The notes under the pieces: model-generated | Database searches by the model: none | Seen by the model: the letters and a program-made list of their open reading frames with translations, nothing else | Told to the model about the DNA's origin: nothing | Shown here: in pieces, positions 11,695-48,380 of the stretch | Position numbering within the stretch: the first letter of the stretch is position 1 | How the letters are laid out: every line of letters begins with the position of its first letter | Assembly: GCA_050273025.1 (NCBI GenBank) | Contig: CP158635.1 | Coordinates: 5,084,001 to 5,148,000 of the forward strand | Reading direction: 5' to 3' | From: Cenococcum geophilum | Taxonomy: Eukaryota | Length of the DNA stretch: 64,000 nt | Position numbers and translations under genes: made by a program

Positions 11695-11779
11695 CTGCAC
11701 TTAGCCATTATAAGGAATGATTTCCCGATAATGTTTCCACCCGCGGCGACGTAGACGCGTACAGTAGGGCTTTGCGGGC
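11695..11779 (-). ncRNA. HDV-like self-cleaving ribozyme at the LINE 5' end (RIP-damaged)
   Basis: Minus strand: P1 GCCCGC(A), J1/2 AAGCCCUA, P2 CUGUAC, P3 GCG, L3 UCUACGU, P3' CGC, P1' CGCGGGU, GG (P1.1), AAA, P4 CAUUAU...AUAAUG, J4/2 GCUAA, P2' GUGCAG. G1-U wobble present, and G1 abuts the TSD. Confidence 0.85.
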
Positions 11780-13959
11780 AATATTAAGAAATATAAGTTC
11801 TATATATCTAAAGCTATATACTTAGGCCTAATTATATCCTATAACGGAATTAAAATAAACTTTAAAAAAATCGCTGTAATTATAAACTAGGAAAGTCCTA
11901 GTAGTATATAAAATATCTAAGGATTTCTAGAATTTGCAAATTTCTGCTGTTAATTTATTAATTACTTTTTAAAAATTATTTAGCTATTAATAAACTTAAT
12001 AAAAAAGAATATAAGATTTAAATGGACTACTAAATATAAATAAGCTTTTAATAACCTAAAACATTATTTTATAACTACCCTAATTTTTACCTACTTTAAT
12101 CTGGACCTTAAATATATCGTTAAAATAGACTTATCTAATTATGCACTAGGAGGAGTATTATTACAATATAATAAGAATAGCGAGCTACGCCCAGTAGCCT
12201 TTTTCTCCCAGAAACTTACCCCTACTAAATTAAACTATAAAATATATAATAAGAAACTACTTATAATTATTAGATGCTTTAAATAAAAGCGTCTAAAACT
12301 TAAAGGATTATTGTTCCTAATACGCGTATTAATAGACTATAAAAACTTATAGTACTTTATAACTATAAAATAATTAATATAGCGCTAAATTCGTTAGGCC
12401 GAATACCTCTTATAATTTAACTTTAAGATTATATACTAACCTAGTAAACTTAATTAAAAGCCTAACTTATTAATAAAATAATTATAGGACTTACTTATAA
12501 ACGCCTCTAATAAACGGATTATAAATTAATTGTAAATTCTACTGCCCCCTAAACGCTTTAAGAAACTACGCCCTATATTTTTAAACGCGGAGCTTAATAA
12601 AAATGAATTAGAAATTAATAAGTGGGATATAGAAATTAATAAATTAATAGAGCACGAATATAAGAACAACCCCTAAATAGTAGATATAATAAAAGCAATT
12701 TAAATAGGGAAACGGCAATATAAGGATATTACACTTACTAAATGCGAAATCTGTAATAATTAGTTATACTATTAATAGAAAATAGTAGTCCTAAATTCCA
12801 AACCCTTACAATTTAAGATACTTAAATTTATACACAATTCCCTTATAGTAGGGCATCCTGGCCATATAAAGACCTATAAGATTATTTAATAAGTATATTA
12901 CTAGCCTATAATATATAACTATATATAAAAATACGTTTAAGTATATAAAATGTGTGTATATAGGAAGACCTCTTATATAAAGAAGTAAGGGGTACTTTAA
13001 CCGTTAATAATTCTAATATAAAGATAGCGAGATATCTTAATTAACTTTATAGTTAATCTACCTAATAGTAATAAGTTTACGAATATTATAGTAGTTATTA
13101 ACCGTCTTATAAAAATGCGATATATAATTCCTATAGACTTAATTAATATAATATTAGTAGCTAAATGTTTTATTAAGTACGTATTTAGGCTATATAGACT
13201 TTTTAATTTAATAATATCCGACTACGGAAGCTAGTTTGTTTTAGACTTCCAATAAGCCTTATATAAATAATTAAGTATATAAACACGACTCTTAACTATA
13301 TTTTATTTAAAGATAGATAGTTAAACTAAAATTATAAACGCAATTATAGAATAATACCTATAAATATACTACTCCTACCTATAAGATAACTGGGAAAAGT
13401 GGCTACCTTTAGCTAAGTTTATTGCAAATAATATAAAAAACAAATTAATAGGTATAATACTGTTTTACGTAACCTACGGATAAGGCCCTTAACTTAGATT
13501 TAAACTATAACCTATAATTAATATAATAGGACCTATAATTAAAAGGATTTAACTAATTAACGCATATAACTTTACTCCATTAAAAAAGAAAATAGAGATC
13601 TAACTGCTGTTTTTAGAGGGTTCTGTCGCCGTTTTTAGAGGTCGCGTTACTAAAACTCCCCGCCGCCCTAAGCCTCTTACTTGCCGGTCTAACGTTAAGC
13701 CTCTTACTTACTTAGCCTGTGCCCCGTTTTTTATAGGTAAACTAGTTTATTTAGAAGTATGACCCTTCTACGCGCCTGACGCTGAACCTATATATACTCT
13801 ATAGCTTTTACCTCTAATCCATTTAACCTAGGCCCCGTTTCTCTTATTCTTTACCCTCCCATTTTCTTAACCCCACATTACTCTCTATATCCTTTCCGCT
13901 GTCACTACCCTAAGTTCTCTTCTAGCTCCCTAAAATGCGGCGCACTTAATTATTAAATT

Positions 13960-16396
13960 ATAGCTTATTATCTAGCGTTACTAACAATAAGTATATAAAT
14001 ATAGATAGCGATGGTAATAGCTACCGGACAGAACTAACCGTCCTTAATAGTAATACTAATAGTACTACTAAATCTAAAAATACTTATAAAGCGTCTGCTT
14101 AAGCATGGCTTTATAAGGATTAAGACTATCTACTAGAATATTACCTTAAATAGTTAAAAGAGTTTAAGAAATCTAATTTTATAATATAGGACTACGCCAA
14201 TGCCACTATAGCTCTCCTTAACCGCATTAAAGAACACTAGCATTAGTAAGTAATAACCTATTTAGCGGCTTCTTTTTAGGCCTAACTTAGCAGAGAGCTA
14301 ATAATTTCTAGATACTGCACCTATATAGGGAAAGACCCCAAGAAAACATACTAAGTCCTCTCGCTTTGGCTCCTTTATAGCTTCTTTAACTAGTCCCTAA
14401 ACTAGAAACGAGGGAAAGGTAGTAGGAAATAGTATAGGATAAAGGTTTCTAGCTCGCTTAGCCTATACTAGAAGTACTATTGCCTTATATATAAGAGAGC
14501 GACTAAAGGGAAAATTACTAGCAAACTAAACCGCCAGATGCATAAGGTAATTATATTCCTAGTTAATCCTTTAACCTAGTAAGGTAAGGCAGAGCTAAGA
14601 TATCTTTTTTAAGTACTTTAAAAACTAGCGGAGAAATATAGTTTAAGCGAGAAAAAGTGAAAAAAGACTGTTATAGACGCGGAGGATCTCGCCCTAGTTC
14701 TTAAGACTAACTTAGTCACAATAAGGAAGCAATATATAGTTGGACGACATTAGATATAAGTGCATTTCTTAATATAACTGGGTCTTTATACTATAAGCTA
14801 ACCTAAAGCTCTTCTAAACCTATGCTACCGACATATAATAATTACACTTATTCGCGACTTAGAAGGCGGGCCTTATAAGATTGTGCCTAAGTTTATATTT
14901 AAATTTACTAAGGAATATCTTAGCATAAAAGAAGCGTATATTCCCTTTCTACCCTATTCCTCTCCTTACGCTTATAGAGAACTAGTAATACTTTCCCAAT
15001 TCCTAAGATTATCTTTAACCCTTTACTTATTCTTAGCCCTTATATCTTTCTCCTAGGCCTTCTTTTTATAAATAAAGCTTTTACGGCCCCTAATCTAATG
15101 TCCGTAGAGTAGCTTAGTAAGCTATATATTAAGCCTAGGCGTAATAAGTTGCTACTACCACTCCGTTTAGACCTAGATAATATCCCTATATTTTGGTGAT
15201 TAATTAAAACCCCCTACGGCCACAAGGTCTTACTTGACTAGCCTTTATTATACTTAACTCTTTTGCCCTAGATTAAGGACCTTAGCGTAATTATGGGATT
15301 TTAGCAGGTTGCGCGCCTATATAGTCTCCGTTACGGCGTAGGTAAGGTATTTAATAAAAATAGTAAGTTTTATTATATAGAGCTAGTTCTACTAAAACCT
15401 TTCTAACGCCTATACTACCTAGGTAATGTAAGTAACGCCCTCCAAAACCTGATAATGTAGCACGCCGACGCTTAAACGTTCCTAAAGCACTACCTTTTGC
15501 GGCGTGTTGATGTAGATACACAAGCAATTGTTTAAGGCTTAAAGCCTTAAGAAAAGTTAATAAAAGCAGTATGCCGAATAAGCCAATTAATTAACCTATA
15601 GCGGCTATAGCACCTAATAATAGAACAATCCTTATTAGTAAATAAAAACCTATATATTTATTCCTTAATCGAAGTTCGAAATAAGCTAAAGCTTAGCCTT
15701 AAGCGCAAAACTATAGAAAGTACAGAATACTAAAAGCTTAGCCGAGAAATTACAAATAAAAGGCAACGTTAGAGAAATGCGCTATTGGAAAATATTAAGA
15801 AGAATTAAAATAACGAATAAGCTATAATTAATATTAAGCGGCAACTTTCCGGAGTTATATTTAGCGAGGATATTAAAGCAACCTTAGAATCTAATAATGA
15901 TAAATTAGCCGAATATAAACGCCTTATTAAAGTGATTATAACGCTACCTAGTATATTACTAGAAGATAAAATACGTAGATGTAATAATGCCATTAATATA
16001 GTTATAGATTACTGCAATATTAAGGAAGGTAGAGTGTATTAGCTAAGTCATTACTAGAGACAGTTTAGGGTAGGTGTCGCCCTTAGCTAAGTTAAGATTA
16101 AAGAAGATATTAAGATTTTAGAAGCAGCTAAAGCGCTAAAAAGTGTAAAGTTATCCTTATTTAAGGAGAAAAGACTAAAGATATGCTTTATCTACCTTGG
16201 GAACTAAAAGCTACTAATTAGCAAGCGTATATATAGGTTCTATACTCTAACTACTCTTATAAAGTATTTCCGACAAGCGCATCTCTCTAAACTCCTATAG
16301 TAGGGTAAGATTAAATGCAATGTTTGCGAAGTGACCCTTAAGCATAAAATGCATTTTTAGAATTATGCGCTTAGTATATATAGGACCTTTTCCTAG
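13960..16396 (+). pseudogene. Starship captain, DUF3435 tyrosine recombinase (RIP-inactivated, intron-containing)
   Basis: De-RIP translation gives QDYADAT.ALLDRIEEHW, SSLGLYWKYY.L.YERA, YSLRYGAGK (~15318), MQHADARTFLKHYL.RRVDVDTQAIVRG (~15455), and C-terminal CFICLG and C2H2-like motifs. Confidence 0.92.
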
Positions 16397-16534
16397 TTAT
16401 TACACGCTTATCTTATTATTCTTTACCACTTTTTATTTCATTTTAGTTTGTTATTATCCAATCCTATTCCAGTATTTAGTAGAATAGATATAATGACTAG
16501 GATTTTGTAATTCGTCTAGGGGGGCGAGGGGTAA

Positions 16535-16636
16535 TAGGTAAGGTAAGGGTAAGGGTAAGGTAAAGGATAAGATAAAGGGTGGGGTAAGGGGTAAGGGGTA
16601 AGGGGTAAGGGGTAAGGGGTAAGGGGTAAGGGGTAA
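16535..16636 (+). repeat. G-rich simple repeat, GGTAA(G) units then (GGGGTAA)8
   Basis: Eight GGGGTAA units at 16581-16636, directly visible. Confidence 0.9.
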
Positions 16637-16819
16637 GGAATAAGGGGAGGGGAGGCTAATAGGAGATGAATAATATAGTTGCTATATAATATCTGACGGA
16701 CCGACTATAGACGAGATATGCATTCGAATTTCTTAGATCAACCCGAACGGAGAAAGAAAGAGAAGTATTATATAATAACTTCCTACCTAAGCCGATCTCC
16801 TAAGCTATATATCTTTACT

Positions 16820-17990: not shown

Positions 17991-20014
17991 ATTTAGTGTT
18001 AAATAGGATAATTAAGAATAAGAACTCTGCTTTATTAAACGTGGCTTTAGAGCCTCTATATATACATTAAGAAGTTATTATTAGCTTTATCTAATCTGCA
18101 ACGGATTTAGTTAATTAGTTAGAGCTTTAAACATTAGTCGCTTAACTAAGGACTAATATAACTTCTAAAGTTATAGGTTAATATTTAGCTTATATATATA
18201 CTAAGCATTTTCTGCTACTTCTTTACCCGGATAAAGCCAGTTATATAACTAGAAAAACCCCACTATCTATATCTAGTAAAAGTACGGAAAATTATAAGGT
18301 AATAAATAAACACTATATAAACGTACGCGGCGGCTATAGGTAGAGGAGCGTGCATTGCGGTAAAGGAAAAAAGGTAACTGTATTTTAGCCTAGTCAGCCT
18401 ATAGGCCTTATAACTCTGCTAGTAAGCCCTAAATTTCGCAATAGTAAACGGAACCTAGGCTTAATATGGTTAGCTATTAGCAAAGCAATATTAAAGCACC
18501 TACTTAGATTTAGGATTAAGTTAATTCTCTAAGGAATATAGGGAAGAATCCGATTAGTTCCTAGTAGGAAAGGCTTTTATAGTATGGAACCTTAATTAAG
18601 GCTCGTATTGACTTATTTTAGAAATCTCCTATCTATCCAGTTTAAGTAATTAATTCGACTCTTTAGGGACGCGATATTGAGGAGGCTAGTATCTTACGAT
18701 AAAACAGGGTAATTGTTATAGGCTTGCGATGAAGAGAGCGATGTAGAGCTACCTATAGAATAAGCCTATTAAAACGTAAAGAGAACTGGTAAATAGAGGT
18801 AAACGCGGGGTCAGCGCATCTGGAGAGGCACTAATATAGTATTGTTATGTAGGCCGACCTATTGTCATATCTATGATTTTATTAGCTATATTAGGAGAAG
18901 GCGGAAGCAAAGACTAGTAGCGTTAGCCGGTTTTATATTGCTAGCGGTTGATTAGGTTAACGTAGTTAATATAGTTAATATAGTTAATAGGGTTAATAGG
19001 GTTAATAGAGTTAATGTGGTTGATAGCCCTACCTTAATAAACGGCACTCCGCGCAGCAATACCAACTTCTTATTTTAACGCCACCACGTATAATAAGTCT
19101 TACCGCTAAATCCAAAGCTAGTAATATATAGGCTGTTGCCGGATATTTTAAAACTTAATAAAAGCGGTTCCTGGTAAGCAGGGATATAAGTATAGCCTTA
19201 ACTCTTAGTAATAAAGATTGGTAAACACTTATATAGGAAGAAGCTAAATAACTTCGCTTATTATATCTAATACGCTTTACTTAGTTTAAGGTTCCTATAA
19301 ATAAATAGGAGGAGCTTCTAGAGCGTTTAAACGAGCTGCTAGCGGCTAAGAGTATACCCCAGGTAGCTACTAAAGTCCTTAATTAGCGTATAACACAAGC
19401 CGTTAGGAAAGCCTATTATTAGTTTTGTTGTATTATGGTTAGAACACTTATACTAACTTAAGTTTTAGCTTTATTAAATGTAGCGTCTAAAGAGGAAGCA
19501 AGCGAATCAACTGATTAACCCTAGGTATTAACTAAGTAATATAATCCTATAAGAGATACAGACCGGTAACTTATATGTTATAGGCCCTGCAAAACGTAAG
19601 AGTGGAGGGGTATTGCTTAGAAAGGTTGTTTTAGTTTTCTAAGTAGTTTATATATTAACTTTAGCAGCGCCCCTACTTCCAAGTCTTCTTACTTAAGGAG
19701 GCTCATTTATACTAGATGTTATTAAAGAGATTAGGCTTTTAAAGGGTTAATAGGGAGATAAGGAGCTAGATAGAAAACGTTTATATTAATCCCTAATGTT
19801 AACATATACGGTTATAGCTAAGGTATATACGTAGACAATATGCCTTGTTTCGCTGCTATATACCCTATAGCACCTATCTCGTATACTATATAAATGATAT
19901 AAACCGGCAATTAATATATAGGCTGTAAGACGCGTTGTAGACAAAATGGCATATGCCTTATAACTTAACTCCCTCCTATTTGTTAATATAAGACGTACAT
20001 CTAGCTCCTATATA

Positions 20015-20247
20015 TAACTAGGACCGAAACTAAGCCCCGGCATATAGCCCTATACTTTAAGCCTATTACTTAACTTAGGGTTAAGAGGATATTAGTATGA
20101 TCTAGCACTCTAGTGCTTACCAGCTTAGCTATCCAAACGCCTTTATGCCTATAATGGCCTACTAATGAATTTTTTTATAGGTAATTAGCGTTTTGTTCTC
20201 GTTTTTTAGGTTATTTAACGCCCCTAATTTTAGACCTACGTATACTT
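20015..20247 (+). repeat. ~230-bp dispersed direct repeat, copy 1 (copy 2 at 41084-41316)
   Basis: Colinear match: actaagcccc..atatagccctatac.ttaagcctattactta.cttag.gtta.gaggatattagtat...tataatggcctactaat.aatttttttataggtaatt. Confidence 0.9.
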
Positions 20248-20930
20248 TTGTATAAATCTCTTTGCTCTTTAACATTTTTAGTCTTTTAATTTGTTTGAGT
20301 TAAGGTTGAGGATACAGTATACGGTCAATTAAAGATAGTTATATACTCGGCTCTAAGAATACTTTTTTAGCGTTTCTAATATCCACAAAATCGTATCCCC
20401 AGCAATGTGTTCCGTGTATAATATATAAAATGATTACTAGTCTTTATATATAAGTTTTTATAGCTTTATATATTGCAGCTAATCTAGCTTCTAACGCTAA
20501 AATAGAGTAAAATTAGTGACGACTGAAAGAAGGAATTTAAAAGATAACGCGATATTATTTACTCTTATTTTAAAGACTATAGGTTAATAATAGACAATGA
20601 AGAAGATAAGGCTTTCCAAAACCTTATTAATTACTGTAACGCTTATAATAATCTGGAGAAAGTTTAATATTTAAAGGAGATACTACTTAACCTTGATTGG
20701 GGTAAGACTTAATAAGAGATGCTTACCAAGAAAATATTATAGAAAGGATAGGAGACATTAAGACATAAAATTTAGATATACTATAGGCCTTAAGAAGCTC
20801 CTGGATATAACTTAGTAATAGCACAACAGTGCTTAATAGATTATCTCCCCCGTTATAACTGAATATATAATATAACTTTTGTTTGTCCTCTAATTAACGC
20901 CTAGCGTATAAATAGGATATTAATGGGTAA

Positions 20931-21197
20931 GCTAGGCGATCCTATAAGCTGGGTAATTGTATAAACTAAGTAATTATATGAGCTAGGTAATCGTGCGAGC
21001 TAAATACTCGTAAGAGCTGGCCAATCCTATGAGCTAGGTAATTGTGCGAGCTAGGTGACCGTGCGAGCATAGTGCTTGTAGGAGCTGGGCAATCCTACGA
21101 GTTAGGTAATTATATAAGCTGGGCGATCGTGCGAACTAGGTAATCGTGTAAGCTAGGCGATTGTGTGAGTAGGGTAATCATATAAGCAGGGTGATTT
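20931..21197 (+). repeat. 17-bp minisatellite, ~15-16 units, de-RIP consensus close to GCTGGGCGATCGTGCGA
   Basis: Units start every 17 nt from 20931. Flanked by a ~30-bp direct repeat at 20887-20917 and 21208-21237. Confidence 0.9.
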
Positions 21198-23304
21198 AAC
21201 CTAGCGCCCTCTATTAACGCCTAGCATATAAATAGGAAGCAGATATTAGGAAGATACTAAAACTATAAAAAAAAGAAATATATAAGTCCCAGATCTAAAA
21301 ATATTGAAGAAGTTCCTATATAAAGACCCCTTATATATACTTAGAGAAGTTTCTATATAAACAGCCCTATAAACGTAGCTATAAGTTTAAGCCCTTTCGC
21401 GTAACCTAACTACCTCTTCCTACTACACTGGAATAGATAAATAACCGCTATATACTATAAGTAGAGAAATGATTTAAACAAAAAGAAAACACTATAAAAA
21501 AATATATTTATATCCTTAAGATATAAATCTATAAGTACTGTAGTCTTAAACACGACTAATAGTTGCTAAGGTGGTATGCGTCCTAGGTCTATAAGAAATT
21601 CAAAAAATCCTAGGTCGTTAGCATAGATTTACCTACTATTATCGCTTTTAAGGTAGTAAATAAATTTATCTAAGTGAAAGTATAGATTATTATAAATGCT
21701 TTATAGCTCGCTATAAGTTAAGTAGGCAAAGACTCTAGTAGGAATAGTAAAATATTGTTTTGTTTCGTAATAGGCTAAATAAAAAGAGGCCAAAGTTTTA
21801 ACCCTTTTACCAGCTTTTATTAGAAATCTTCTTTATATTTATATTTTATACTTATAGATTTAAGACTATAAAGCTAAGGCCACCGTATCTAACTGTTGCC
21901 TATATAGCCTTGTCGCTTAACATCTCTTTATTACTATCTACCCCTATTTCTTCATCTTTAGTGCTAAAACCATTTTCTCTATTATATAATGTCTCTGCGT
22001 CCCATTCTTAATCCTTATTATTAAAGTTACTTTCCTAACTAGCTAACGCCTCTACGTTGCCGTTATCTCTAAAGTCGGTTTCTCTATCTATAAACGCCTA
22101 CTTACTAGCTGACAATTTAGGGACGCTATATTTATAGGTACTTAGGGTTGCGGATACCACTTAAGGAGAAATTATAGTTAATGTTGTTAGGATATAGAAC
22201 AAACCTGTGGACCTCTAAGTACTAGCTACTTAGCGCTTTAAATAAAAGATCTCCTTTAACGTAAGGTAGATTAATAGGAGTTAATTTGCCGCCTATATAA
22301 GGCGGAGCGCTTATAAAGGGCTTAGCTAAAATAGCAATTAAACCACCCTAAAGGCACTAATAGCTCCTTTACCATAGATGGGGGGTTAATATACAAAATT
22401 AACTGGCTAGGATAAGTCTACTGCTTAGGCAGTGTCTTGCCCTAAAAAGGATAGGCGTTAGAAGTGGATTATATAATGCTATTCCTGCTAAGAGAGGCGT
22501 TATTAGGGGTTATTGTTAACTTCTAATTCCAGTTTATAACTTTATGCAAACGCTTCTAAACCCTACTAAGGTATGCGGCGTCTATTAGGGATTATTAGCT
22601 ATTTAAGTTTAGCAGCAGCTTAGCCAATAGCTACCCTTAATAATGCCTTACTTATAGACTACTCTAGGCACCTATAGTCTTGGGCGCAGACGATATATAA
22701 GCTAAGAGTAATTATAGCTACTAAATATTATACTACAGACACCACATAAAGTAGAAAGGGGCGGCTAGTATACTCTGCCTTTCCCTTCTGCCTTCTATTT
22801 TAACTCTGCTTTAGGAGAGAAATAAAATATAAACGTTATACTCCTAGTTCTTATATGCTATTAATTTGACTTACCTTTAAATCTAACCTCTTAACTATAT
22901 ATCCCTTACTATCTTTATAAGAATACTAGATATTATATATATTACCTTAATTAAGCTTAGATATATTGCTAATATAACCTATAGGTCCTTAATTAGTGCT
23001 TATAAAAATATTATAATATACTATCGCCCCAAAGATAATATACCTAATTATTAACCTATTGGAAACCTTAAATTATTCTAAAATCGCATTAACGATAAAG
23101 ACACGGCATTTGGTAGCGGGGAGGAGAAATAATTGTAGCTTTCTAACCCTATGCAGAAACAGATGCCTTATACGCCTGCTTAAATACCTAATAAGGCTAA
23201 TTTTTATGAAAGCAACAATAATACGAAAGGCGATATATAAGAGGATATGGTTTAGGGAGGTGTACAAAAAATATACCTTAATTATTTTAGGGGATTGGAA
23301 GGCG

Positions 23305-24560
23305 GTGAAACTAAGATAGACTTACCTAAGCTAATAAAGGACTATAGCGAGGCTAAGATAGACTCGCCTTAACCGAAAGAGAACTATGTTAAAGGCTTAT
23401 CCTAGTAGATAAATACAGTTATAGGTTCTAAATATATTTCGCCGGTACCTAGAGGTATATTTGTAAAACACCTATATTATTTAACAATACTAATAATTAA
23501 GCAGAGAATGGTTTAGTCCCTATATATCCATCTAAAGTGTTAATAATTTCCGATGCTAAGATCTTAAGTAGATAAGTAAAGTATCTTATATCCTGGTTAC
23601 CTACTTATTATATAATAAAGGACATAATATATCTCCGAAACCCCGGTTATAAAGGAATTATATCTTTATATGGTCCTATTGTAGTAATATACTGGTATCC
23701 TACCTAGGTTTTAGCGGTGGCTATACCGTAAAAGAAACTTTTATTATACTATACTAAGAATCCTTATCACCTTTGCCGTTATGCTAAGATATATAAACCG
23801 CTTAAAGATATTATAATTGAGATAGCTAAGAAGGGTAAACTGTATAAGCAAGGAGATTAACTAGGACAGTAGTAGATACTCTCTATACCTGCTTATATAA
23901 TTAAGGAGGTTAACTCTTATAAAATTGATGATAATATAAAGGGTAATATATAAGAGGATACGGAAATATACGCCAATTACCTTAAGAGCCTAGAAGGCCG
24001 TAGTGAAACTAAAATAGTCTTACCTAAGCTAATAGAGAGCTATAGCGAGGCTAAAATAGACTTACCTTAACTAAAAGAGGTTTATATTAAAGGTTTGCTA
24101 ATACCTCTAGGTATGTTTATAAAACACCTATATATTATTTAATAATACTAATAATTAAGTAGAGAATAGTTTAGCTAATCCTATAAACTTCCTTAGAGAT
24201 ATACCTCCCCTAACTAAAGTATTAATAATTTCTGATGCTATAATTTCAGACAGATAACTAAAGTATCTCTTATTATGGTTGCCAACTTGCTATATAATAA
24301 AGGACTTAAAGTGTCTCCGAAACCCTAAATATAGATTAGTTGTATCTATATATAGTCCTATTGTAATAATATCCTAATATCCTACCTGGGTTTTACCTAC
24401 GGGTATACCGCATAAGAGACTTATATTATACTATACTAAGAACCCGCGTTACCTCTATTGTTATACTAGGATATATAAACCGCTTAAAGATATTATAATA
24501 GAGATAGCTTAAAGGGGTAAATTATATAAGCAAAGAGACCAACTAGAAGAGGCGCTAGAT
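23305..24560 (+). repeat. ~560-bp internal tandem duplication within an unidentified pseudogene
   Basis: 23305-23880 aligns with 24003-24560. Both translate as ..TYLLYNKG..SPKP...GIVS.YGPIV..YWYPTWVL...IP.K.L.LYYTKNP.HLCRYA.MYKPLEDI.IEMA. Confidence 0.85.
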
Positions 24561-25997
24561 AATTATTTAGAAGATCTATTAATGAGAGGGACATATAAAA
24601 GAAAGGTAGATTGCACTATAGATAGAGCCTCTAAGAAGCCAAAGAAATAAGAAATTTCTTATAAGAAAAGATTTTCATAATTACGTTTATGTTTTCTAGC
24701 GCTGAGAATTAAAGCGCCAATTAGGATTTCCTTAGCTTGGTATTGTTTTTCTATCTAGTTACTTCTATATTAAGAGTATCTTATTATCGTTTATATATAC
24801 GTTAAATTAAAGTTAAGAACTCGCTTATAGTAAGCTTATAAGTCCTCCACCTTTATATACTTAGCAGCAATAAGTTAGCCGCCCTATAACTTGCTTAGTC
24901 CTCTATAAAGAATTAAAGTTAAGGTATTAAAGTCTTTGGCGTTTTTATGGGTAACTAGGGTGTGGGTTAACTCTAAATTTTATATTAATAAGGTGGGAAT
25001 ATTAAGGATAAATATAGGATATCTCTCTTAATATTGAAAATGGGATCTTATTCTAAGAACTGGATCTAATTCTAAAGACTATATCCTATCCCAATTTTAA
25101 GCTAAACGTACTAAACGTAGCTAAAAAGGTATAGCGTTAAGCCAAGCGGTTTAATGGTCTTAGAAGAGAGGAGCTATTTTTAGTTATAGCTTAAGTTATA
25201 ATTCTAGGAACGGAATCTAATTCTAAAACTAAGATCCTAATTTAGGTTCATGAAGTAGACTAATTAACTACTATAAAAAGGGCGCGATCCTAAAAAAGGA
25301 TCCGGTTCTAAGAACTGGATCCTGGTTATAGGAAATAGGTTGATTACGCGCTGTGAAATAGGGTTGGCTATATCTGTATTTGGTATATTAGGTTTAGCTT
25401 ATTTTAGGACTAGCTATGTAATTAATTATAGGTGCTTATATAACCAACCCAATAATTAACCCGCTATTGCTAGCTGTACCTTACCTAGCGCCTTTTAGTA
25501 TTGCTATATTAGAGCCTTACTCTATTTAAGCCTTATATATCGCGGAACAAACTAAAAGCTAATAACTATAATTACTAATAAATGCTGCCTATAACTTTCT
25601 AATAATACCAGAACCCTATATACGCACTATATTTTTAACCTATATAACTAGGACTATAAATAATATTTCCTACACTTTAGGTTATTATAGCTTAGTATTT
25701 AACTAAGCCCTATAAAGCCTCGGTTTAAGCCATATTAAATTAGCTTAACTTTTCTATACCTAATCTTTAATCCTTTGTGTGTTTACTCACACCTTACTTC
25801 CTTCCTTATACTTTTTTCCCTGGTTATTTTCTTATTATAAGACACTACCGACGTGTTCTTGACCTTCTTATACTTATTTAATTCTCTACTATTATATCGT
25901 CCGTTATATACTAGCCTCTTTAATCTCCCCTTTTTGCCTACCTATTTGCCTACTACGCCGGCCACCCTAATATAGCTTTTATTGCGTTTGCCTATAA

Positions 25998-28384
25998 TAG
26001 CGAATCTCTTTAAATTAGAGATAATTAAAACGAAACCTATTAGGGAAGGACTAAATAACTTTTGCGATTTATTTAACTTAACTTATTAGAATCTAGGCAT
26101 CTTTAGCTCTTTAAACTTATTACACTAAATAGGCAATAAAGGTAATTGTTAATTAGTCTACTATAGGTCCCGTCTAACATATATAGGGCTTAAGAATCTT
26201 ATTATTAACCTTGTTCTAATATTATAAAACCTTTCTACTACTTAACTACTCCCGTCTAGCGCTAGCCGCGGTACTCTTTATAGTAACCTTCTTTAATTCC
26301 TCCCTTTGGTTAATTCTAATAACTTTAATATTAAACAGTTTACCCCTCTCCTAAAAACAGTTCTTAATTATAAATTAGATAAGGACGTTTAGAGTAAAAC
26401 TATCGCCACCATTACAGAGCCTACGCCTCCCCCCCAACCGCTACTATTCCACGTTTAAACCCCATATCTATATAACATAAGTAGCTTCGCTAACTCGTCT
26501 AAATATAGGAAATATATAGATGATATTTTAAAGGAGGAGCTAGGCCCTCTTTACGTGGGGATTCCTAGCTTATATAAAGCATTCTTTAGGGGAGTAGAAG
26601 GTCTTAAAGAGGCAAGCGCCGCCGTTTTTAAGAAATGTAAGGAAGGGGATAATCTACTATACGCTAATAAGGGCGGCTGGCGTAACTGGCCTAAAAGCGC
26701 AGAGTAAGATAATATCCTAGAGTAGTTTAATAACCTAATTAAATTATTTTTAGGCTTTATAGAGGAGTATAGGTCTGCCCTAAAGATATAATAAAAGCTT
26801 ATTATATATACTGAGCAGCCCTTATAAGGGTCTACGGCGAAGCGAAAGCTAGATATTAGTTTTATAGATAATCTAATAGCTAGTAAAGGCTCTTAATGCT
26901 ATTAGTTATATATACTTATACTAGGAGAGCTAAAGAGTAATCTAAACACTAATATAGCCTTGTAGGTATGGTTTGCTTTAGGGAAATATATAAGGGAAGT
27001 CTTCGCCGCTTAGGATAATTGTCGCTTTATCTTAGGTTTTACCCTCTATAGATCTATTATACGGCTATAGAAGTATAACTGGGTAAAAGGCATTGCATTA
27101 TTACTATTTAATATTAATAAAGACGGACTATAATTTACCTTGGCGATATTAGGGTTTCTTTTAATAAATAAAGAGCAGCTCGGGTTTAACCCTACTATTT
27201 TGATATTAAACGGCAAATGATATATTGAGGTCGTGCGTAACGATTAGACTAAACATCTTATTTTTAATAAACTCATAAAGCGGGCACCCTGCATTGCCGG
27301 TTAGGCGATAATTTACTAGAAAGCGCACTATGAGGGTAATACCTCTAAGATACCTCTCGTTATTAAAGACTTATAGCAGTACCTAGAGCGTAAGGAAGAA
27401 GGTGAACTGCTACGTAAAGCAGCGGAGAAAGGAGTAATTAACGTAGCCAGGTACTATTACTATAGGACTATTTATATAGGTGGATAAGATAATGATATCT
27501 TTAATATCTATAAAGGGCTGGATATTACTAAAGCGATAAACTATAAGCCTAAAAGCTTAATAGTACCTCTAAGCGTAGCTAAAGTGTAAGGTAGTATAAG
27601 GAAAGGCTAAAGCACTAGTAAAAAGAGGTCGTCTAGCTATACTAACGCCCTATTACCGCCTAATAAGCACCCATATTTAAGCTCTCTAATTAAGCGCCCT
27701 ATTATATAGAATTAGGTGCATTAACGCGTTATTACTTACGACTATAAAAAGGCTCTTTATAAGGCAAGCTCTCTAGCTACAATACTTACTACGCTAAAGG
27801 GTGGCATTAAAGGATATAAGTCTTTATATACGTAGGCTAGCATCCTCTAACGTGACATTTTAATAGGCAACCTCTTAATAAATAAGGAAGACGATAATCC
27901 CTTCTAGAAGTTATTCTTAATTGATCTCAATCTCGCGATTAAAGAGAAGCGAGAAGGACCTTTAGGAGTATAGGGTAAGACCAGTATAAAAGCGTTTATG
28001 GCTATAGGAGTGCTTCTAGGCGAGAAACACTCCTTTAGGTATAATTTGGAGTTGTTCTTTTAGGTGCTTTTCTGGATATGCGTATACTATAATAGGCTAG
28101 GTAAAGATATCGGTCCAACTAAGTTTAAGTGTTAGAACTATAAGAATACCACTAAGTTAGCTAAGTTAAAATTGGGGCTAGTAAATAGGAAAGGGCATTT
28201 TCTTAACTATATAGCTAAGGCATTTACACCTTACTACTAGCCGCTAGTCCTATGGGTTAATAAGGTGTAGAAGGTAGTTTTCCTAATAGATAGAAAGTGG
28301 GAGAAGGAAGATAGGGCGCTTTATTTTTAGATAAAAGAGATTCTCTAGCAAGTATAGAAGGATCTAGAAGTATTAGCAGAGTAG
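25998..28384 (+). pseudogene. Fungal-specific protein kinase (FunK1 / Pkinase_fungal), Starship cargo
   Basis: De-RIP motifs NTSSFANSSEYRKYVDDILKEELG, WSHILVPGELKSN, FVLGFTLCG, LVIKDSWQY, QRDISIGNLL (~27848), FLIDLDLA (~27914), GKTGT.AFMAIGVLLGEKHSFRHDLESFFWVLFWIC. Confidence 0.92.
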
Positions 28385-28698
28385 ATAGAATAATATTTTA
28401 TTATCCTATATTCTTCTACCGCATAAGTTAAAGTTTTGTAGAGATTTGGGCGGCTAAGGCTAGGTAGTAGCCTTAATTAAAACGCATATAAAATAGCGTT
28501 GGGCGAGTTGCCTGGGCTAAATAAAACTCGGAAGAGTGGATAACCTAATCTTCCGCTAGATTATTAGGTCCCTATACCCTATTATCCCATATAGGCTTTA
28601 TTTTTTTATAAAGCGCGTAATCTACTCTCTAGCCTATTAGAAGCCGCTTTATACCGCCTAAATAGAGGCTATAAGAGAATTAATCCCATCTTCTAACC

Positions 28699-28979
28699 AA
28701 TCCCCTACTTAAATAAGTCCCCTACTTAAACAAATCCCCTATAGGAGCGATTGCCCACATATTTCGCCGCCCTATGGGAATTAGTCCCCTACTCTAATAA
28801 ATCCCCTACGGGATTTAGTCCCCTACTTCAACAAATCCCCTATACTAATAAATCCCCCACGTTAACAAATCCCCTACTTTAATAAATCCCCTATACTAAT
28901 AAATCCCCTGCTCTAATAAATCCCCTACTCTAATAAATCCCCTACGCTAATAAATCCCTTACTCTAACGAATCCCCTAT
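28699..28979 (+). repeat. 17-bp minisatellite, consensus AATCCCCTACTCTAATA
   Basis: About 14 units with one interruption at ~28742-28781. Confidence 0.9.
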
Positions 28980-38750: not shown

Positions 38751-41083
38751 CCCTAGCTACTCTTACTACCTTTTTTTAGCTTAAGGAGGCTGGTTTCCTA
38801 AGGCGCTATAGGAGTTCTAGAGGAGTCCTATATGAGTTACATAGGAGTCCCAGAGGAGTCACAGAGGAGTCCTAGAAGATTCCTAGAGGATTGCTAAGAG
38901 ATTGCCATTAAGGGGCATAATATTCTATAAAGGTGGTTAGAGGGAATTAGGCTATAACTTAGCCTTGCAGCCGCCTTGTTATCTTGCTACCCTATCGCGC
39001 TATTACCTTATCGCCTTGTTGCCTTTTTGCCCTTTTTTACTTTGGTTAATCTCTTTATTAGTAGGATACCCCTGCTTTTTAAAATAATGTATAAACTTCC
39101 TATTATAGTATTTATTAGCGCTAAGTTTATTTGTTTACTTATTCTTAGTTAAGTAGTGCTTTTATAGCTTTGTTTATTAACTACCTTACGGCATTCTTTT
39201 TGCTTTTAAATAATTTTTTACTTCCTCCCTCTCTAAACTATTTTTGGAGTCTCCCTTTATTACTAGCTTAAAAACATCTCTTCTATTTTAGCTAAGTTGT
39301 TATATATATTATTAGAGCTGTCCTAGTATACTAGACTAGCTATTAAGGTTTATACGTGCAGCCTCTTAAAGTAAATTACTAACTAAAAATTAGGCTTTAT
39401 TCTTATGGAGATTCTATATAAATATTTTAAAAACTATTTTTAATAAGGATTTCCCAGTCGTTACCGGTATTACTATACTTGCCTTTTTACTCCTAATTTC
39501 CGGCTTTGTATTAGTATTCTTCCCACAACACTAGATAATAGGGCGTTCGTTAGCTTTCTTAGATAGTCTCTTAGTAAATATATTATTAGGTGTAACTCTT
39601 ACTGCTTCTACCTAGATAGTAAGAAAATATAGAAGGTTAAAAGTGTTATAGCTCTTATGCGCTACGGTTATTCTTATACTATATTCTAGCATTTACTTTA
39701 TATTTATTAATATACATCTATTCCTTTCGGTAAGCTACTATAGTAACACTCTAGTGACCTCTACTAACAGGAATAGGGACACTCTCTTATGGAATGTGTT
39801 ATAAATATTACCGTCGTTTTGCTATAAGCTTAGTCGCTTTATATCAAATACCAATAGCACAACGCAATATTTTATGATATACCTATTAGCCTTAGTGACT
39901 CGGAGAAAGCTATACGGAGATATTTAAACCCTAAATACCCTGACCGACCCATCAGCCCTGATAACTTAGAGGAAGCTATAATATTAAACCCTAAATTCTC
40001 CTATACTAAAACTAATCATGGGAGGAATAGGTTAGTTCTTAGTTATCTTAGTTACTTTTTAGGCTAATACTAGCTTAGTAGTTTTAAAATTTACGTTAGC
40101 TGTTTTATTAATATAACCTATAAAGCGCGGAGAGAAGGTAAGACCTTTCTATTTAAGAATTTTAAAGCTATAGATAATCCCCCGCTAGATAAGGGCCTTT
40201 AATCTAAGGTATATAGCCTATAGTAGGATTACGTCTTTCTACCTAAGAAGGTTAAAGCTATAGATAACTTCCTACTGGATAAGGTTTTCCTCGGAGATAA
40301 TTGCTATATACTTCAGTTATGCCTTAAACGCATATATCTTAAGTAAGAGTAGAGAGACTTTATATCCTAAATGCTAGAGCTTGGTGACTTAAGGGGGGAG
40401 GCTATAGAAAAGCTAAGGTTGTGAGAGGTATATATAAGGAACTGTTAAGTTATTTAGGAGGAATTTTCTTTTTAGGTAGTAGCTATATATAGACTTTATT
40501 AAAGCTTAAAGCCTTTTACTACCTTTAAACTTCCTTGGAAAACCCAGCTAAGATATGGCTCCTCCTTTAAAGGTATATAGTATTATCTGAAATTGCCTTA
40601 TATGGCTAAGGTTAAGATACACTCTATTAAAGCCACTGAATGCGTCTCTAGCTCTATGCCTTATTATATAAAACCAGACTATGGTTTTTGTTTATTTTTA
40701 GGAGGGAAGGCCTTATATGGAGTCTCTTATTATTGTATAAAACTTTTATACTAGAAGTATACTAAATTTTTAAGGGCTGGGAGCGGGGATACGCTAGCGC
40801 TCTACGACTTGGCTAATCACTTTTAGTTATGCAACAAAGCCTAATAAGTGACGGTTTAAATATTTGTAGGTTTTATTATAGATGGGTAACTAGGGTAATT
40901 GGGGGAATATATACCTAAGCACGAGCTAGAGTATAGCGCATTTGCTTTACCCCTCTAAAATAGTTAAACTTTTATATTTTAAAGTCTAAGCCGCGATCTA
41001 TAGGGTAAACTACTAATTTAAGAAAGCCCTAAATACTACCCGCTCTCTTACTTATCAATCTAAAATATGCTAGCTCCTGTGTA

Positions 41084-41316
41084 TTAACTAGCACCGGAAC
41101 TAAGCCCCTATATATAGCCCTATACCTTAAGCCTATTACTTAGCTTAGAGTTAGGAGGATATTAGTATAATTTAGTACTTTAGGGCTTACTAGCTTAGCT
41201 ACTAGAACGCCTCTGTGTCTATAATGGCCTACTAATAAATTTTTTTATAGGTAATTGGTGTTTCGTTCTTGCTTTCTAGGTTAATTAGCGCCTTTAATTT
41301 TAGGCCTATATATATT
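41084..41316 (+). repeat. ~230-bp dispersed direct repeat, copy 2
   Basis: Matches 20015-20247. Confidence 0.9.
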
Positions 41317-42429
41317 TTCATTGCCTCTAAATAATTAGGGTTAAACTATATTATAGTTAGCCTTTTACTAACCTTTGCTATATATAACTATATATCCGTA
41401 TTAAGTTGCTAACGCCGCCTTTTAATATATTTGGCGTACTAGGTTTAGACCTATATATACCCTTGTTATTCTAGCAAGATATTAGCCACGTATAATATAC
41501 TTAACCTTTAACCGGTCTTTGATATGTATATAGTATAGCGTATACTATCGTTTTATCGGCTGATATATTAATAGACCACTAAGTCCAGACCTCTAGAGCT
41601 AATATTATTGTTACTTACTATATTATATCTTCCTAGGGAGGTTCCCAATCCTAAGGATACTCTTATAGCCGCTCTTACAACTCTTAAAGCCGCCCCTATA
41701 GCGGTGAGATTTTAAGTTTTTGCCGCTAACTTTAATGAAAGCGTTTGCACGACCGATAGCAATTACTCTATGCTCGTTTATATTGCAATGCCTCTTAGTA
41801 ACTACACCATATTGAGTTTAGAGATCCTTCGTAATACGATTTATAAAGAAGGTGTTAAGTACGCAGTTAGTGCGTATAATATTTCCGGTAAAGCCTATAA
41901 GAAGCTTCCTAATAAACTTGCGGTTTTACGCTACTGTCTAAGTATATATCCTTTAATAATATAATTTTCTGGACTAATTGCAATATAGAGTAAGGGGCGA
42001 AAACTAGAAGAGAAGCCTTTAAATAAGTACTTAAGGAATATATAGCAGAGCAACGGAATAAAGAATGGATTGTATAGATAGCTGGAAAGCTTAGGCTATA
42101 GGGGTAGGTAAGCCGGCTCACTTGCTGCTAAATTGAGGGTGCTATATATTAGAGGCTATGGAAATACTACCATCTAATTATATAAAGGAATGTTTTATAG
42201 GTGCACGGGAATAATTAGAAAATTTCATATAGACTATTAAGGAATGTAGAGTTCTGTAAAACATTTTCATCGTTATATTTTCAAGACGAGGTTTAGAATA
42301 AATAAGACTTAGTATAGCTTAGATAAAGGACCTAGGGTGTATCTACTATAAAGACTAATTTTGTCTGAGAATAGCGTTTAAAATCTAGGGTGAATAATAG
42401 ATTAGTTAGCTAGATACTAGGATTTTTCC

Positions 42430-43300
42430 ACCTCTTTAAAGCCCTTTACTACTTTAACACTTATAGACCTCATCGTAGTGCCACCCCCTGGCTGCAGCTG
42501 TGAAAATCTTATCGGCTAGGGAATTTCGGGCACTATATATCGCGATGAACTTTAAAATAAGGTTATTAAAGCTCTAAATAACGCGAATTCTTGACGCTTT
42601 ATCGAAGTTAAAAAGGAGATTTATAAGAGACTTAGTTAATATAATAGACTCTTACAATACTATAGCAGCGAACTTTTCTAGAAGGATAACCGTATGGCGA
42701 TACGTCTAGAACGCGCTTTAAACGGCTAGCTCTACGGGTTTCTTTAGGATAGAAGCAATAACGTTAATTAAATTTTATAAATACGTTAGATTTTATAGCT
42801 TACGGACGTTTTTAAATATGTTTACTTTAGATATATTATATACGGTGATATTTTGTACTATAATATTCTTTTAGATAAATATTTAAACGTAAAGCTAATT
42901 AACTTCGCTGGTTTATCGATTAATAGGTCTCCTCTTCTTACTTTATACTCCATTTAAGCCTAAGCTTTGTATCTAAGTACGCCTTAAAAGGACGAAATTT
43001 TTGCCTTTAGATCGGCTTGTTATTATATCTTAATATATTATATCGCCTTTTATGAGCTTTCCGATAACGATATAGAAGATCGTTATAAATAAGGAATATT
43101 TCCCAAATTAAAGTCCCTAGGGGCCTTTAGAGTTATTATTGGAGGCTATTAGAACGGCAAATATAACTATATAGATAACGTTATTAAAGAAATGGATAAG
43201 TAAGGTATGTTTATAAAACTAGGAATTTTAACTATCTAAACTTATTCATAGGTTTACGGAATCTATCCCTAGTAACGGCGCCGCGGCATTTCCTCTATAC
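42430..43300 (+). pseudogene. Ser/Thr protein kinase-like, Starship cargo
   Basis: LIG(W)GISGTVY (~42508), VIKAP, EVEKEIYERL, IRLERA.NG.L, HGDIS..NILLD (~42841), KLIDFAGSSIDG (~42892). Confidence 0.85.
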
Positions 43301-44049
43301 TCTTAAGGCTTTCCTTTTAACGTTTACGAAATCTTATCTTTAGCTTAAAAATTTAAAGGCTTCTCTATCTAGATTTATACCTTACCTATTTCTTAGGCGT
43401 TATTGGCGTTAATAAAGGTAAGTTTTATACTTTATAAGTTTATTAGTCTTACTATCCTTCTATATAGTGTAATATACTAACTATCCTTTATTTAGGATAT
43501 GCTAGACAATCTTTAGTTGTTAGTGAGCTCCTAAACTACGCTATACTTTGTGTTATAGGTATTAGGTTAGGACACGCTTACCTACCTTATATAATAGCGC
43601 TAGGGTAGAGTATAATGCGATTTATCTTTAAGGAATATCTTAGTCTCTTTTAGTACTTTTTATATTTAACGGTAATTTTAGTAAATTAGCATATCTTGAG
43701 TATAGAGAAGTTTATAATTTGACGAATTCTTTTAAGTGTGTTAATGGTAAAAGAGAGGATTCGTAATATAAACGAATAGGTACTGTAATGCCTAGTAATA
43801 TAATAGGTCTCACAACTTATAAGGTTCTGTTTTAATTAGATATATATAATATAGATAAGTTAGTAACAAAATTTGGATAAAAACGGCTGTATATAGTAAT
43901 ACCGCGTTAAGAAAATGTATTTAAATAATTGGACCACTAAATGCAAACTCTAGCTTCCTATTTCCGCGGGATTAACTAAAATATAAGAATACGCCCAAGC
44001 TACTAGCCCCGTCCCTTCTATATAGTAACTCTGCCCTTTATTTCCGCAA

Positions 44050-46900
44050 CTTTAGAAAAAGAGTGCACCTATGATGATCTAGCTTTAGCTTGTTAAACGC
44101 GTCTTTAGTAAGACTTAAGGGCATCTTTAAAATTTAAAAGCCCGCTTTTATAAACCTAGGTAGGCTTCTAAGCCACCTTATATTTGCGCCCTAACTTAGT
44201 TATTCTTTCCCCTAGAATATTATTAATCTCCTATTTATTATTTAAGCTCACTTTATTAATTTTATCTTTTTTAGTCTAGGTATAACGCTTTATAGTAGGC
44301 TCTAGGTTTAAAACGTTGCTCTAGTTATTAATAGCGCCACCGCTGTTACTATCCTTATCCTCGTTATAAGTATAATTATTAGCCTTATTATGCGGCGGTT
44401 TAGAGCTATAGAGAAGGGTAGGCTCCTAAAGTGAAGGGCTAGTAGGCTATAGAGTGGATACCGCTTGCTGGTTAACTTATAGGTATTAAGAGTTAAGGTT
44501 AGGTATAGGGGGGCTAGAAGATAAGTCTTCGCGATAGGTGGGTAGCCTTTATTACTTTTAGGGATGTGGATTATTACTACCCTTACTACCCCCGCTACTC
44601 TCTTTAGTAGGGTTATTAGAATTATAATTAGTAACGTCGTCCCGCTTAAGCTTCCGCTTCTTTAGTATAAAGGATAATTTACCTCCCGCATTCCCTTTCT
44701 TGTAATTACCCTCCCTAATAAGCGGATTGTCTATATATTATAGTTATTAGGTTATAGTAATGATATTTTTAATATCTATAACTTACCAATATTATCTATA
44801 TTATTGGCTATTAAGGAGTTTTAGTTAGTCACTATATGGGTCTCTAACTTCTGTATAGCCTAGGGGATAATTATAATATTAATTCCCTTAGCTAGGCTAT
44901 CTATTTTATTAACGTCTTCTATTATAGGTTTAAGATAGTTATATATAGATATACTAAAGAGATCTTCTAGCTTCTCTAAAGAAGGTAACTTCTTATCCTT
45001 ATTATCCTTATTACTGCGGTCATTTCCGCTACCTAATAATTATTAAGCAAGGCTATTATATAGGGGGGAAGTATATACCTAACCTATGAGGTGCTAGTTA
45101 ATCGCCAACTTTATCAGCTTTATTATTAGTATTGCTAGCTCTATCCCCTTCGGCTTTAGGTTCTAAGTCTAGGTCGGCTATATTATCTTCAATAAATATT
45201 AGATTCGCTACTGCCCGTTAGATATGTTTATAGTTATTAGGAAAAGGAGGGGATAATTACTAAATTACCTTAATTACTTTCTCTAGCGTCTTAGCTGTTA
45301 CTTATATTCTTATAAATATCTTTATACTTATTAAAAGCCTTAGGATCTGCGGGTGCCTTATTAAGTAGAATGTTTAAAAAAGGTAATATAGAATAACTTG
45401 CCTAAGTATAATTAGGCTAAATATTTTATAGGATTATCTCTTAGAGGGAAGCAAGGTACTCTCCCCTTTTTCGTCCTTTTTTTAAGTATGTTGCTTATAT
45501 TTGCCTTAGAAGCCGTAATTATATAATGCTAAGAAGCCTTTGGTTTTTTAGGGGGTATAATATAGAAATTAATATTATTAAGTAAAATTTGTGAATTAAA
45601 ACGGAGGGGTTAAAAAGATGCCACTGTTATTACCGCTATTGTTATTAGAATTATTATTGCCTTATACCTTTCTAATAGCCCTAAAGGACGAGTTATGCTA
45701 GGCTTTTAAGTCTACGCTAGTCCCCTCTTTGCCACTAGCTTATATCCGTAGTATCTATACCAAAATAACCCTATTAACTTAATAGCGAATTAAAACGTGT
45801 AATCTACGCTCTATTAGCAATTACTGTTTATAATGTATAAAGGTTTATACGGGCTTAAACTCTATTATAAAATTAACGCCTATTAGGAAACTGTAATTAA
45901 GACCTAACTAACTAAGCTGGTACATTTAGCCTCTAATAGGGGTATTATACTAAGCCTCCTTATTAAGGAGGTTAGTAGTAAAGTGCCTTTACCCTTATTT
46001 CTTAGAGTTAGAGCTAGCGCTAATATGTCCGTTTTTTAACCCAATTATACTAGCAAACTAGATCTTTTATACTAGATCTTTTGCGAAACTATAGTTCCTA
46101 AAATTAGATAAGTAGGGGGCGTGCCGTGATTCTGCTATAAGTATTAAAAGATACTCTAAGTAATAAGGGTATCCTTAAATCTCTCCCCTAGATCCGAGGA
46201 ACTTCCTTAGTCACACTCTATAAAGCCTGTAGCCGCTACTTAACCTCTTAAATATATGCAAAAGCCTTACTTTTATCCTTACCTATAACTGGATGTTACA
46301 AATAACATAAGGGGGCAGATAGCGCGAGTAGATTAGGCGATTACGCCTGTATCTATCTTACTATATCCTTTTAGCTAATACAGCCACCGTATAAAGTCCG
46401 TCTCCGTTAGAAGATTAAATACGCGAATTTTTCTCTAGTATTTGTTAGCTAAGAGTAAGATTATAACACTAGCTCTACTAGAAGCCAGGCTATACTACTA
46501 GATAGGCTATTTACCCCTAAATTCCGCCTTATAAGTCTTAGGTCTATATAAAGGATATTTCCGTATAACCTATACCTCCTTAGCTAAATAGGGGGCTAGA
46601 TTAGACTAAAGCCCGGCGGCTTCTTTAATTGTAATACAATCCTCTAATTATTAGGGAAGAGTAAGGTTTAGGTCTAGGTTAAAAAGGCGCTAAGGAGGGT
46701 AAGGGCTTCTAGCTTCCGGTAGCGCAGCTTTAACTAAGCTAAGTAACTAGCATTAACCTATGGTTTCGCTAAGGACCTACTTTGGCGTCTAGCTTCGCCT
46801 TTATTATAATGCTATAATATAACACTACTTAACGCGTCCCGTAGCTTGTAGCAGCTATAACCTATATAATCCATTACTAGGCGGTTCTTAGTATAGCTAT
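44050..46900 (-). pseudogene. Large hypothetical protein with C-terminal chromodomain-like motif; last Starship gene, facing inward
   Basis: 44105-44240 minus de-RIP: EWEIDDILGERMT..GRKY.VAWKPTWV.ESGL.N.KDALESY. The upstream acidic/low-complexity coding-like sequence was not identified; start uncertain. Confidence 0.6.
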
Positions 46901-48380
46901 TTATATCTATTCTAACAGGGATTAAGTCGCATATTATAGTTATATCTAAGATACTGCTAGAGGTAGAGGTAAAGAAGAGGATGAATGGAAATATTATTCT
47001 GGTGCACTAATCGGTAGGAGATATAGGTAGGAGGAGAGGAGAGAGGAAAGGAAGAAAGGAGGAATATGGTAGGACTAAAGCATACGTTAATACTAGAAGA
47101 GAGTATAAATGTGTCCTATAGAAAGGGCCAAAGAGTTATAGTGCTAGGTAATCGTTAGTATGAAATATACGGAGATTAGGGAAGGGGTAGAGCACCTATA
47201 TAGACGCTAAGGGGATGGAAAATGCCTTATAGCTGACAGCTAGAGTCTAAGGTAGTACGGTAGCGGGAAAGAAAAGAGGAGATGGAGTATAAGGGCAAAA
47301 GTAGCGAGGGAGAAGGCCTTTTATGGTCGAGGTTGAGGTTAGGTCTTGGCCAAACTAGGGTAAAAAAGTGAGCGCGCCTTGCCTATAAAGGAACCTCTAT
47401 TTCCTAATACGTAGTCTTTATTTTATTTTTTACTAATTAAATAAAGTAGTTAACGGAACTATTATAAAGTAAATTAGCGTACGCTTAAATAGTATAAAAA
47501 TGGTATATAAATAAAGAACGAGCTCCCGTATAGGACTTTAAGGAAGGTAATATAGTTTACCTAAATATATAAAACCTAAAGACTTAATAACCTTTAAAGA
47601 AACTAGACTAGAAGTTTACAGGCCTATACTAAATTAAAAAGAAACTAAGCCTATACGCTTATAAGCTTAAACTGCTAACTAAGATAAAAATATATCCGAT
47701 GTTTTATATAAACTTATTATAACCTTTAAAAGGTAAACCTTTAACTTATAAAGTGCCGCCGCTACTTCCTATAATTATTAATAACGGTAATAGTTCTTAC
47801 TTTATTAACTTAATTAATAATATATAATGGAAAATATAATTTAAATAATTTAAACTTCTTATTAAGTGGAAAGGATATAAAATATAAACCTAGGAAACCT
47901 ATAACCAGATTAAGGCCAACGCGCCTTCTTTAGTAAAAGAATTTTATAAGGACTATTCTTTGCGGCCTACTTTAGCTAGATAGATATAATATAAAGGTAA
48001 ATAATTACTACCTAATATAAATACACGAAACATAATAGTAGGGAGCTTAAAATTAAAAAGAACTTAAAATATATTATAACATTTATAATATAATTACGTA
48101 ATATATAAGATATTAAGGAACTTTAACCGCTAGTTAAAGTTATCTAATTAGTTAGATTTACCTTGCTAAGACCTACTATAAAGATATTAGTTCTGCTTAC
48201 CGCCCTAACTAAGCTAATAGTGATTTTTTATGCTGGGCATAGAAAATCCTAATTAGTCTATTTACGATTAGAACCGGTAAAACTCTATACTACTACTTAA
48301 CGCGAAAATATAATACGCAAAAAGTTATAAGTCTTAACTAAAATTAAATTATTTAGACCTTTGGCTAAAAGGGGGGATAC

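Follow-up and report, generated by a model that had tools for sequence, protein, structure and literature searches.

Starships are giant transposons led by a captain, a DUF3435 tyrosine recombinase that is the first gene of the element. According to PMC11162782, their flanking repeats reflect the core of the target, with TTAC conserved in the Hephaestus family, and terminal inverted repeats (TIRs) are only occasional; insertions into AT-rich DNA and into bona fide transposable elements (TEs) are known, and copies mutated by repeat-induced point mutation (RIP) are termed derelict. Here we describe an element of this type in a 64,000-nucleotide stretch of Cenococcum geophilum DNA (assembly GCA_050273025.1, contig CP158635.1, positions 5,084,001 to 5,148,000), hereafter called the window, whose own numbering is used throughout. 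Positions 13577-47434 very probably represent a derelict Starship, structurally complete and killed by RIP, that entered a TTAC-type core in a Ty3/Gypsy integrase gene through site-specific recombination. Published precedent exists for each of its features, namely captain, TTAC-type core, insertion into a transposon and death by RIP.

Hephaestus, from Paecilomyces variotii, integrates at TTAC(N7)A and its excision leaves no remnant, so its flanking repeats are not duplications (PMC10104507). A preprint also reports the detection of a circular intermediate that is joined at TT//AC and depends on the captain for its integration (bioRxiv 10.64898/2026.09.21.753150). The C. geophilum element resembles Hephaestus in having a DUF3435 recombinase as its first gene (PMC10104507, PMC11162782), in carrying a TTAC core in its flanking repeat together with a target of TTAC, seven bases and A, a likeness that counts for little in AT-rich DNA, and in its clean insertion, as expected of a shared core instead of a duplication. 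Unlike Hephaestus, it is RIP-dead and shows no metal-resistance cargo.

Degraded Starships, including the regions named 'Derelict', are inactivated by RIP or decay and are immobile, as is the present element (PMC9156397, PMC11162782). The original Derelict regions have neither a captain nor clear ends (PMC9156397), whereas the present element still has both of its ends and a captain pseudogene of full length. Phoenix, from Macrophomina phaseolina, has the target TTTACA (PMC9156397, Table 1), which agrees with the TTTACT found here at five of six bases and is as close a target as the TTAC(N7)A of Hephaestus; the Phoenix family is also reported to be associated with insertion sites in AT-rich DNA and TEs, the kind of site occupied here (PMC11162782). 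Unlike the present element, Phoenix averages 74 kb and has the usual accessory genes. The two hosts appear to belong to one class, the closest named relatives of the present captain being from Dothideomycetes. Crypton transposons likewise encode a tyrosine recombinase, make no target-site duplication and are proposed to pass through a circular intermediate. They measure a few kb and are not known to carry cargo, whereas the present unit measures 33.9 kb and its recombinase covers positions 2-418 of the 418 in the DUF3435 profile.

Ends of the element and the interrupted integrase gene

The window is AT-rich (GC 0.27-0.40 in 2-kb windows) and strongly RIP-positive, and no open frame of more than 117 codons is found between 13 and 48 kb. 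Gene finding was therefore done on translations that carry an X at each stop codon, combined with six-frame Pfam scans (E<=0.01). The density of stop codons was also considered as a discriminator between coding and non-coding frames and was rejected, as it gave no separation here.

The element interrupts the pol gene of a Ty3/Gypsy retrotransposon. In the left flank, one frame matches RT_RNaseH_2 (E=9.6e-23), RT_RNaseH and Integrase_H2C2 (E=7.7e-08), and the right flank matches SH3_Tf2-1 (PF24626, E=6.9e-07; 29.7 bits, 0.3 bits short of the cut-off of 30). The rve core has no Pfam match in these flanks and is visible only through tblastx matches to three further integrase copies of the window; with the core placed in this manner, the order of RNase H, integrase zinc finger, core and C-terminal SH3 is that of Ty3/Gypsy pol. 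The left flank reads ..AYNFT up to 13576 and the right flank reads FTNXIKXLTELL.. in the same phase, with TTT ACT forming whole codons on both sides. An earlier note, made from the letters of this stretch, had proposed that the element is nested in a retrotransposon integrase and that the host frame rejoins across it, and both proposals agree with the single frame observed here. The element sits in the linker that separates the catalytic core from the SH3 domain, and the host retrotransposon is older than the Starship insertion.

Other Gypsy copies in the window provide a measure of how cleanly the flanks rejoin. By tblastx, the distance over the joined flanks is 217 nt where one integrase copy has 209 nt, and 364 nt where another has 370 nt, so that by this measure the insertion is clean to within a few bases. 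The same spacing was rejected as a test of one versus two hexamers, being 6-8 nt off from two diverged copies. In a RIP-tolerant nucleotide alignment, the joined flanks align collinearly across the junction to a Gypsy copy at 55.3-57.8 kb.

Both junctions carry the direct repeat TTTACT that the earlier note had reported (Table 1). Because this hexamer is common, with 51 copies on the + strand of the window, the repeat is meaningful only through independent evidence that fixes both ends. At the left end, this evidence comes from a second copy of the element: pairwise alignment shows that homology to 63632-64000 begins at TTACTC (13572 and 63632, respectively) and that the flanks upstream of these positions are unrelated. 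At the right end, it comes from public sequencing runs. Logan contigs from four such runs were aligned to 44001-64000 and 24 loose contig ends were listed, with 1149 further ones. Among the loose ends listed are two contigs of one run (X5) that align from 47429 rightwards and are preceded by the loose letters GTATATAAC. The left flank at 13562-13570 is GCATATAAC and differs from GTATATAAC by one transition. Since the letters that precede 47429 in these contigs equal the left flank apart from this transition, the contigs represent an uninterrupted Gypsy with a single TTTACT. Public-run sequence therefore passes from the left flank through one TTTACT into the right flank, which is the empty site. 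The contiguity of Gypsy across 13570 and 47429, on which the earlier note had made its proposal depend, is thus found in two contigs of one public run. Boundaries marked by short direct repeats, together with an empty site that can be recognised, are what is expected of a Starship.

The rejoined target, TTACTAATTAAA, reads TTAC, seven bases and A at 47430-47441. TTAC occurs 373 times in this AT-rich window, and 136 of these sites conform to TTAC(N7)A; the match accordingly adds little weight. The TTTACT repeat is better read as a recombination core common to element and target than as a target-site duplication, because the excision of Hephaestus is reported to be remnant-free and because the second copy starts with TTACT. 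No Rfam family matches in the window, so the target is neither 5S rDNA nor a tRNA.

Some further observations concern the public runs and the Gypsy surroundings. Summed contig depths from the public runs are higher at the 3' end of the element than at 58-60.7 kb; depth gives no copy number and was not used. Downstream of the Starship, three further diverged Ty3/Gypsy integrase regions lie on the + strand (48826-49860, 52611-53339 and 55378-56396), one of which includes an Integrase_H2C2 match at ~48820-48981. Upstream, a GC-richer block at 9500-11900 (~0.39-0.40) truncates the reverse transcriptase (RT) of the host Gypsy and may be another nested insertion; it contains a weak match to a hAT dimerisation domain at ~10058-10225 (E=0.004, under the cut-off).

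Captain and cargo

The captain starts ~420 bp from the element's 5' end and reads inward, as the first gene of a Starship does. The earlier note had named DUF3435 for this position and had asked for a profile search, which returned DUF3435 (PF11917) with E=2.2e-68 for the best stretch (231.6 bits against a cut-off of 25.8, profile 212-418) and E=1.1e-13 for a second piece in another frame (profile 2-95). Searching 1.84 billion representatives with the captain gave 609 matches at E<=0.001, 30 of them at E<=1e-30. A word-indexed search gave 35 matches at E<=1e-10, and PF11917 is present in 35 of 35. The best full-length relative (734 aa, 46% identical) aligns to 13998-14936 with residues 8-282 and to 14978-16393 with residues 280-734, and no other locus in the window matches it. 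Two motifs, YSLRY and H..F..HY, are retained, as is the Cys/His tail at the C-terminus, and the conserved RRP reads XRL.

The captain has 23 in-frame stops in each of its two parts and one frame change, where an active Starship would have an intact frame; with these 46 stops the element is dead, hence 'derelict'. The description of the Starship as 'complete' in the earlier note therefore holds for its structure, that is both ends and a captain matching residues 8-734 of the 734-aa relative, and fails for the captain's reading frame.

Several fragments of 291-429 aa that are 46-69% identical to the captain are named Cenococcum geophilum, and full-length relatives come from other Pezizomycotina. 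The genera of the closest named relatives belong to the Dothideomycetes. Two public runs labelled root metagenome contain 0.28-0.30 of the sampled words from 44000-50000. A host associated with roots would agree with these word shares and with the C. geophilum captain fragments. Other public runs show gaps in coverage and shares of 0.23-0.30, which were not taken as absence of the element.

About 31 kb follow downstream of the captain, including a Pkinase_fungal pseudogene, in keeping with the cargo of a Starship and with the long cargo noted earlier for an element of this size. Within 13577-47434, the six-frame Pfam scan finds nothing besides the captain, Pkinase_fungal and a weak Pkinase trace (Table 1). 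No RT, rve or transposase domain is among the matches, so there is no recognisable nested transposon, and neither metal-resistance nor other recognisable adaptive cargo is seen in these scans. The cargo also contains a direct repeat of 1.8 kb, whose copies lie 21 kb apart and are identical at 1022 of 1659 aligned bases (RIP-tolerant score). No Pfam domain lies in this repeat, which could represent either a non-autonomous repeat of unknown type or a duplication within the cargo and would also feed RIP.

The scarcity of domains raises the question of whether the 34 kb is a composite, in which a small Crypton-like DUF3435 element or a lone gene at 13.6-16.4 kb was followed by unrelated AT-rich repeats in the same gap and the whole was never one mobile unit. 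Such an origin would account for the ~29 kb of interior that has no Pfam match in any frame, for the internal repeats and for a TIR that is not significant. It does not account for the far end at 47434, where the host resumes precisely, its frame unchanged and the hexamer present again, nor for an interior without RT, rve or transposase domains in which RIP is even along its length and below the level of the flanks (composite RIP index 1.06 for the element against 1.29 and 1.38 for the flanks). Given the exact return to host sequence at the far end and an interior in which no TE domain is found, we consider a composite origin improbable. The two ends suggest instead that the 34-kb element moved as one unit.

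Smaller repeats are also found in this region: a tandem array of GGGGTAA (9.6 copies) immediately downstream of the captain's 3' end (16581-16647), a tandem duplication of ~700 bp in the cargo (23175-23878 and 23888-24561, ~70% identical) and a 17-bp tandem array ~700 bp downstream of the Pkinase_fungal pseudogene (28785-28978, 11.4 copies, 77% matches).

Second copy and repeat-induced point mutation

The second copy begins 16.2 kb downstream of the 3' end of the first. The 5' ends of the two copies are 81% identical over 385 columns (blastn) and differ by 45 transitions against 7 transversions. Over 63632-64000 the second copy is less RIP-mutated, with a GC content of 0.477 and C or G retained at 31 of the 45 transition sites. 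Given its unrelated upstream flank, it represents a further insertion site, as expected of a Starship, and the family has thus reached at least two copies. In the six-frame scan, the region upstream of the second copy has no integrase or other Pfam family, which leaves integrase-specific targeting by this Starship family unsupported.

The two copies have the same orientation and lie within 50 kb of each other, as would also be the case if segmental duplication of a chromosome block, and not transposition, had made them both; the second copy would then be uninformative on the end of the element. A block duplication would share flanks, whereas the sequences upstream of the two TTACTC starts are unrelated right to the boundary and neither an integrase nor another Pfam domain precedes the second copy. 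With the upstream flanks unrelated up to the boundary, we regard segmental duplication as highly improbable. Insertion of a Starship at two sites accommodates both boundaries.

RIP is commonly recognised by a TpA/ApT index of at least 0.89 and a (CpA+TpG)/(ApC+GpT) index of at most 1.03. The element has values of 1.59 and 0.53, respectively, and all 4-kb bins of the window are RIP-positive (1.52-1.83 and 0.31-0.62), in agreement with the earlier suggestion that RIP runs across the whole cargo. Both indices and the excess of transitions between the two copies identify the element as RIP-affected. The existence of a second copy supplies the trigger for RIP, and RIP probably followed duplication of the whole 34-kb element.

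The region as a whole is bracketed by an inverted repeat of ~300 bp (7628-7922 and 57513-57831), the arms of which are 76-92% identical and 50 kb apart.

Table 1. Coordinates of the element, its host gene and associated features in the window
Feature	Position	Strand	Remarks
Host Ty3/Gypsy pol, left part	12023..13570	+	RNase H ~12023-12418, integrase zinc domain ~12800-12970, integrase-core-like stretch up to the insertion
Left direct repeat TTTACT	13571..13576	+	TTACT at 13572-13576 shared with the start of the second copy
Starship element (very probable)	13577..47434	+	33,858 bp, including the right-hand repeat only; RIP-mutated throughout
Captain pseudogene, DUF3435 tyrosine recombinase with C-terminal Cys/His tail	13998..16393	+	two frames, 13998-14936 and 14978-16393
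Captain intron, 60 nt	15363..15422	+	GTAAGT...CTAAC...TAG signals; its 20 codons are missing in 10/10 aligned relatives
Internal 1.8-kb direct repeat, copy 1	18659..20480	+	partner 39784-41552
Pkinase_fungal (PF17667) pseudogene	26888..28081	+	single frame, 22 in-frame stops; covers profile 18-387 of 387 (E=2.5e-76, 257.4 bits)
Internal 1.8-kb direct repeat, copy 2	39784..41552	+	partner 18659-20480
Weak protein-kinase N-lobe trace	42508..42912	+	PF00069, E=0.0022, 17.9 bits against a cut-off of 31.7
Right direct repeat TTTACT	47429..47434	+	from the sequence and the loose ends of run X5
Host Ty3/Gypsy pol, right part	47435..47725	+	linker and Tf2-type SH3 (47546-47725); frame continues that of the left part
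Start of second Starship copy	63632..64000	+	same orientation; ends with the window

Weighing of the evidence and proposed history

A number of observations weigh against a derelict Starship at 13577-47434. The support for the empty site amounts to nine loose letters in two short contigs of one run, and these contigs may derive from a paralogous Gypsy copy instead of an empty allele. The Gypsy copy at 55.3-57.8 kb aligns poorly just left of the junction and for this reason gives no base resolution. Only 369 bp of the second copy fall within the window, and neither movement nor an intact copy was observed. The offset imperfect TIR described in the earlier note did not hold up: when the first 60 bases are compared with the last 60 in reverse complement, the best agreement is 12 of 14 in an A-rich run, and 4.9% of 2000 shuffles and 10.7% of 2000 random pairs of 60-mers drawn from the window score as high. 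A TIR was therefore rejected, the match being at chance level. Furthermore, DUF3723, ferric reductase (FRE), patatin-like (PLP) and NLR genes are not found in 13577-47434 by the six-frame Pfam scan; such accessory genes are frequent in Starships without being required, and heavy RIP could hide them. Finally, some later rearrangement within the cargo is conceivable in view of the 1.8-kb internal repeats.

For the derelict Starship, which we consider by far the best account of the locus, published work on Hephaestus suggests the following history. A circular form of the element, with a TTAC(T) core where its two ends meet, would have been integrated by its own DUF3435 captain into a matching TTTACT/TTAC site through site-specific recombination. 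A crossover inside the shared core would place the core at both ends and leave the host bases unchanged, with none lost or gained. RIP later destroyed both captain and cargo, rendering the element immobile.

In one Cenococcum geophilum genome paper, the word 'Starship' occurs in the reference list only, which we do not take as absence from the literature. The value of the locus lies in being a clean teaching case, that is a fossil Starship for which both ends are fixed to the base without a second genome, by means of the host retrotransposon frame and the second copy. It is also a pointer to a Starship family in this genome; several degraded relatives are among the matches of the word-indexed captain search. 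We tentatively hypothesize, as a possibility with the odds against it, that this is a small, formerly multi-copy Starship family residing in the retrotransposon-rich, RIP-mutated AT-isochores of a repeat-bloated, root-associated Dothideomycete, and that it maybe spread by short-range hops, as two copies in the same orientation 50 kb apart might suggest. If true, such genomes would hold many base-resolved 'fossil' Starships for which the frames of host TEs serve as built-in empty sites, and Starship invasions could be dated against RIP and TE bursts.

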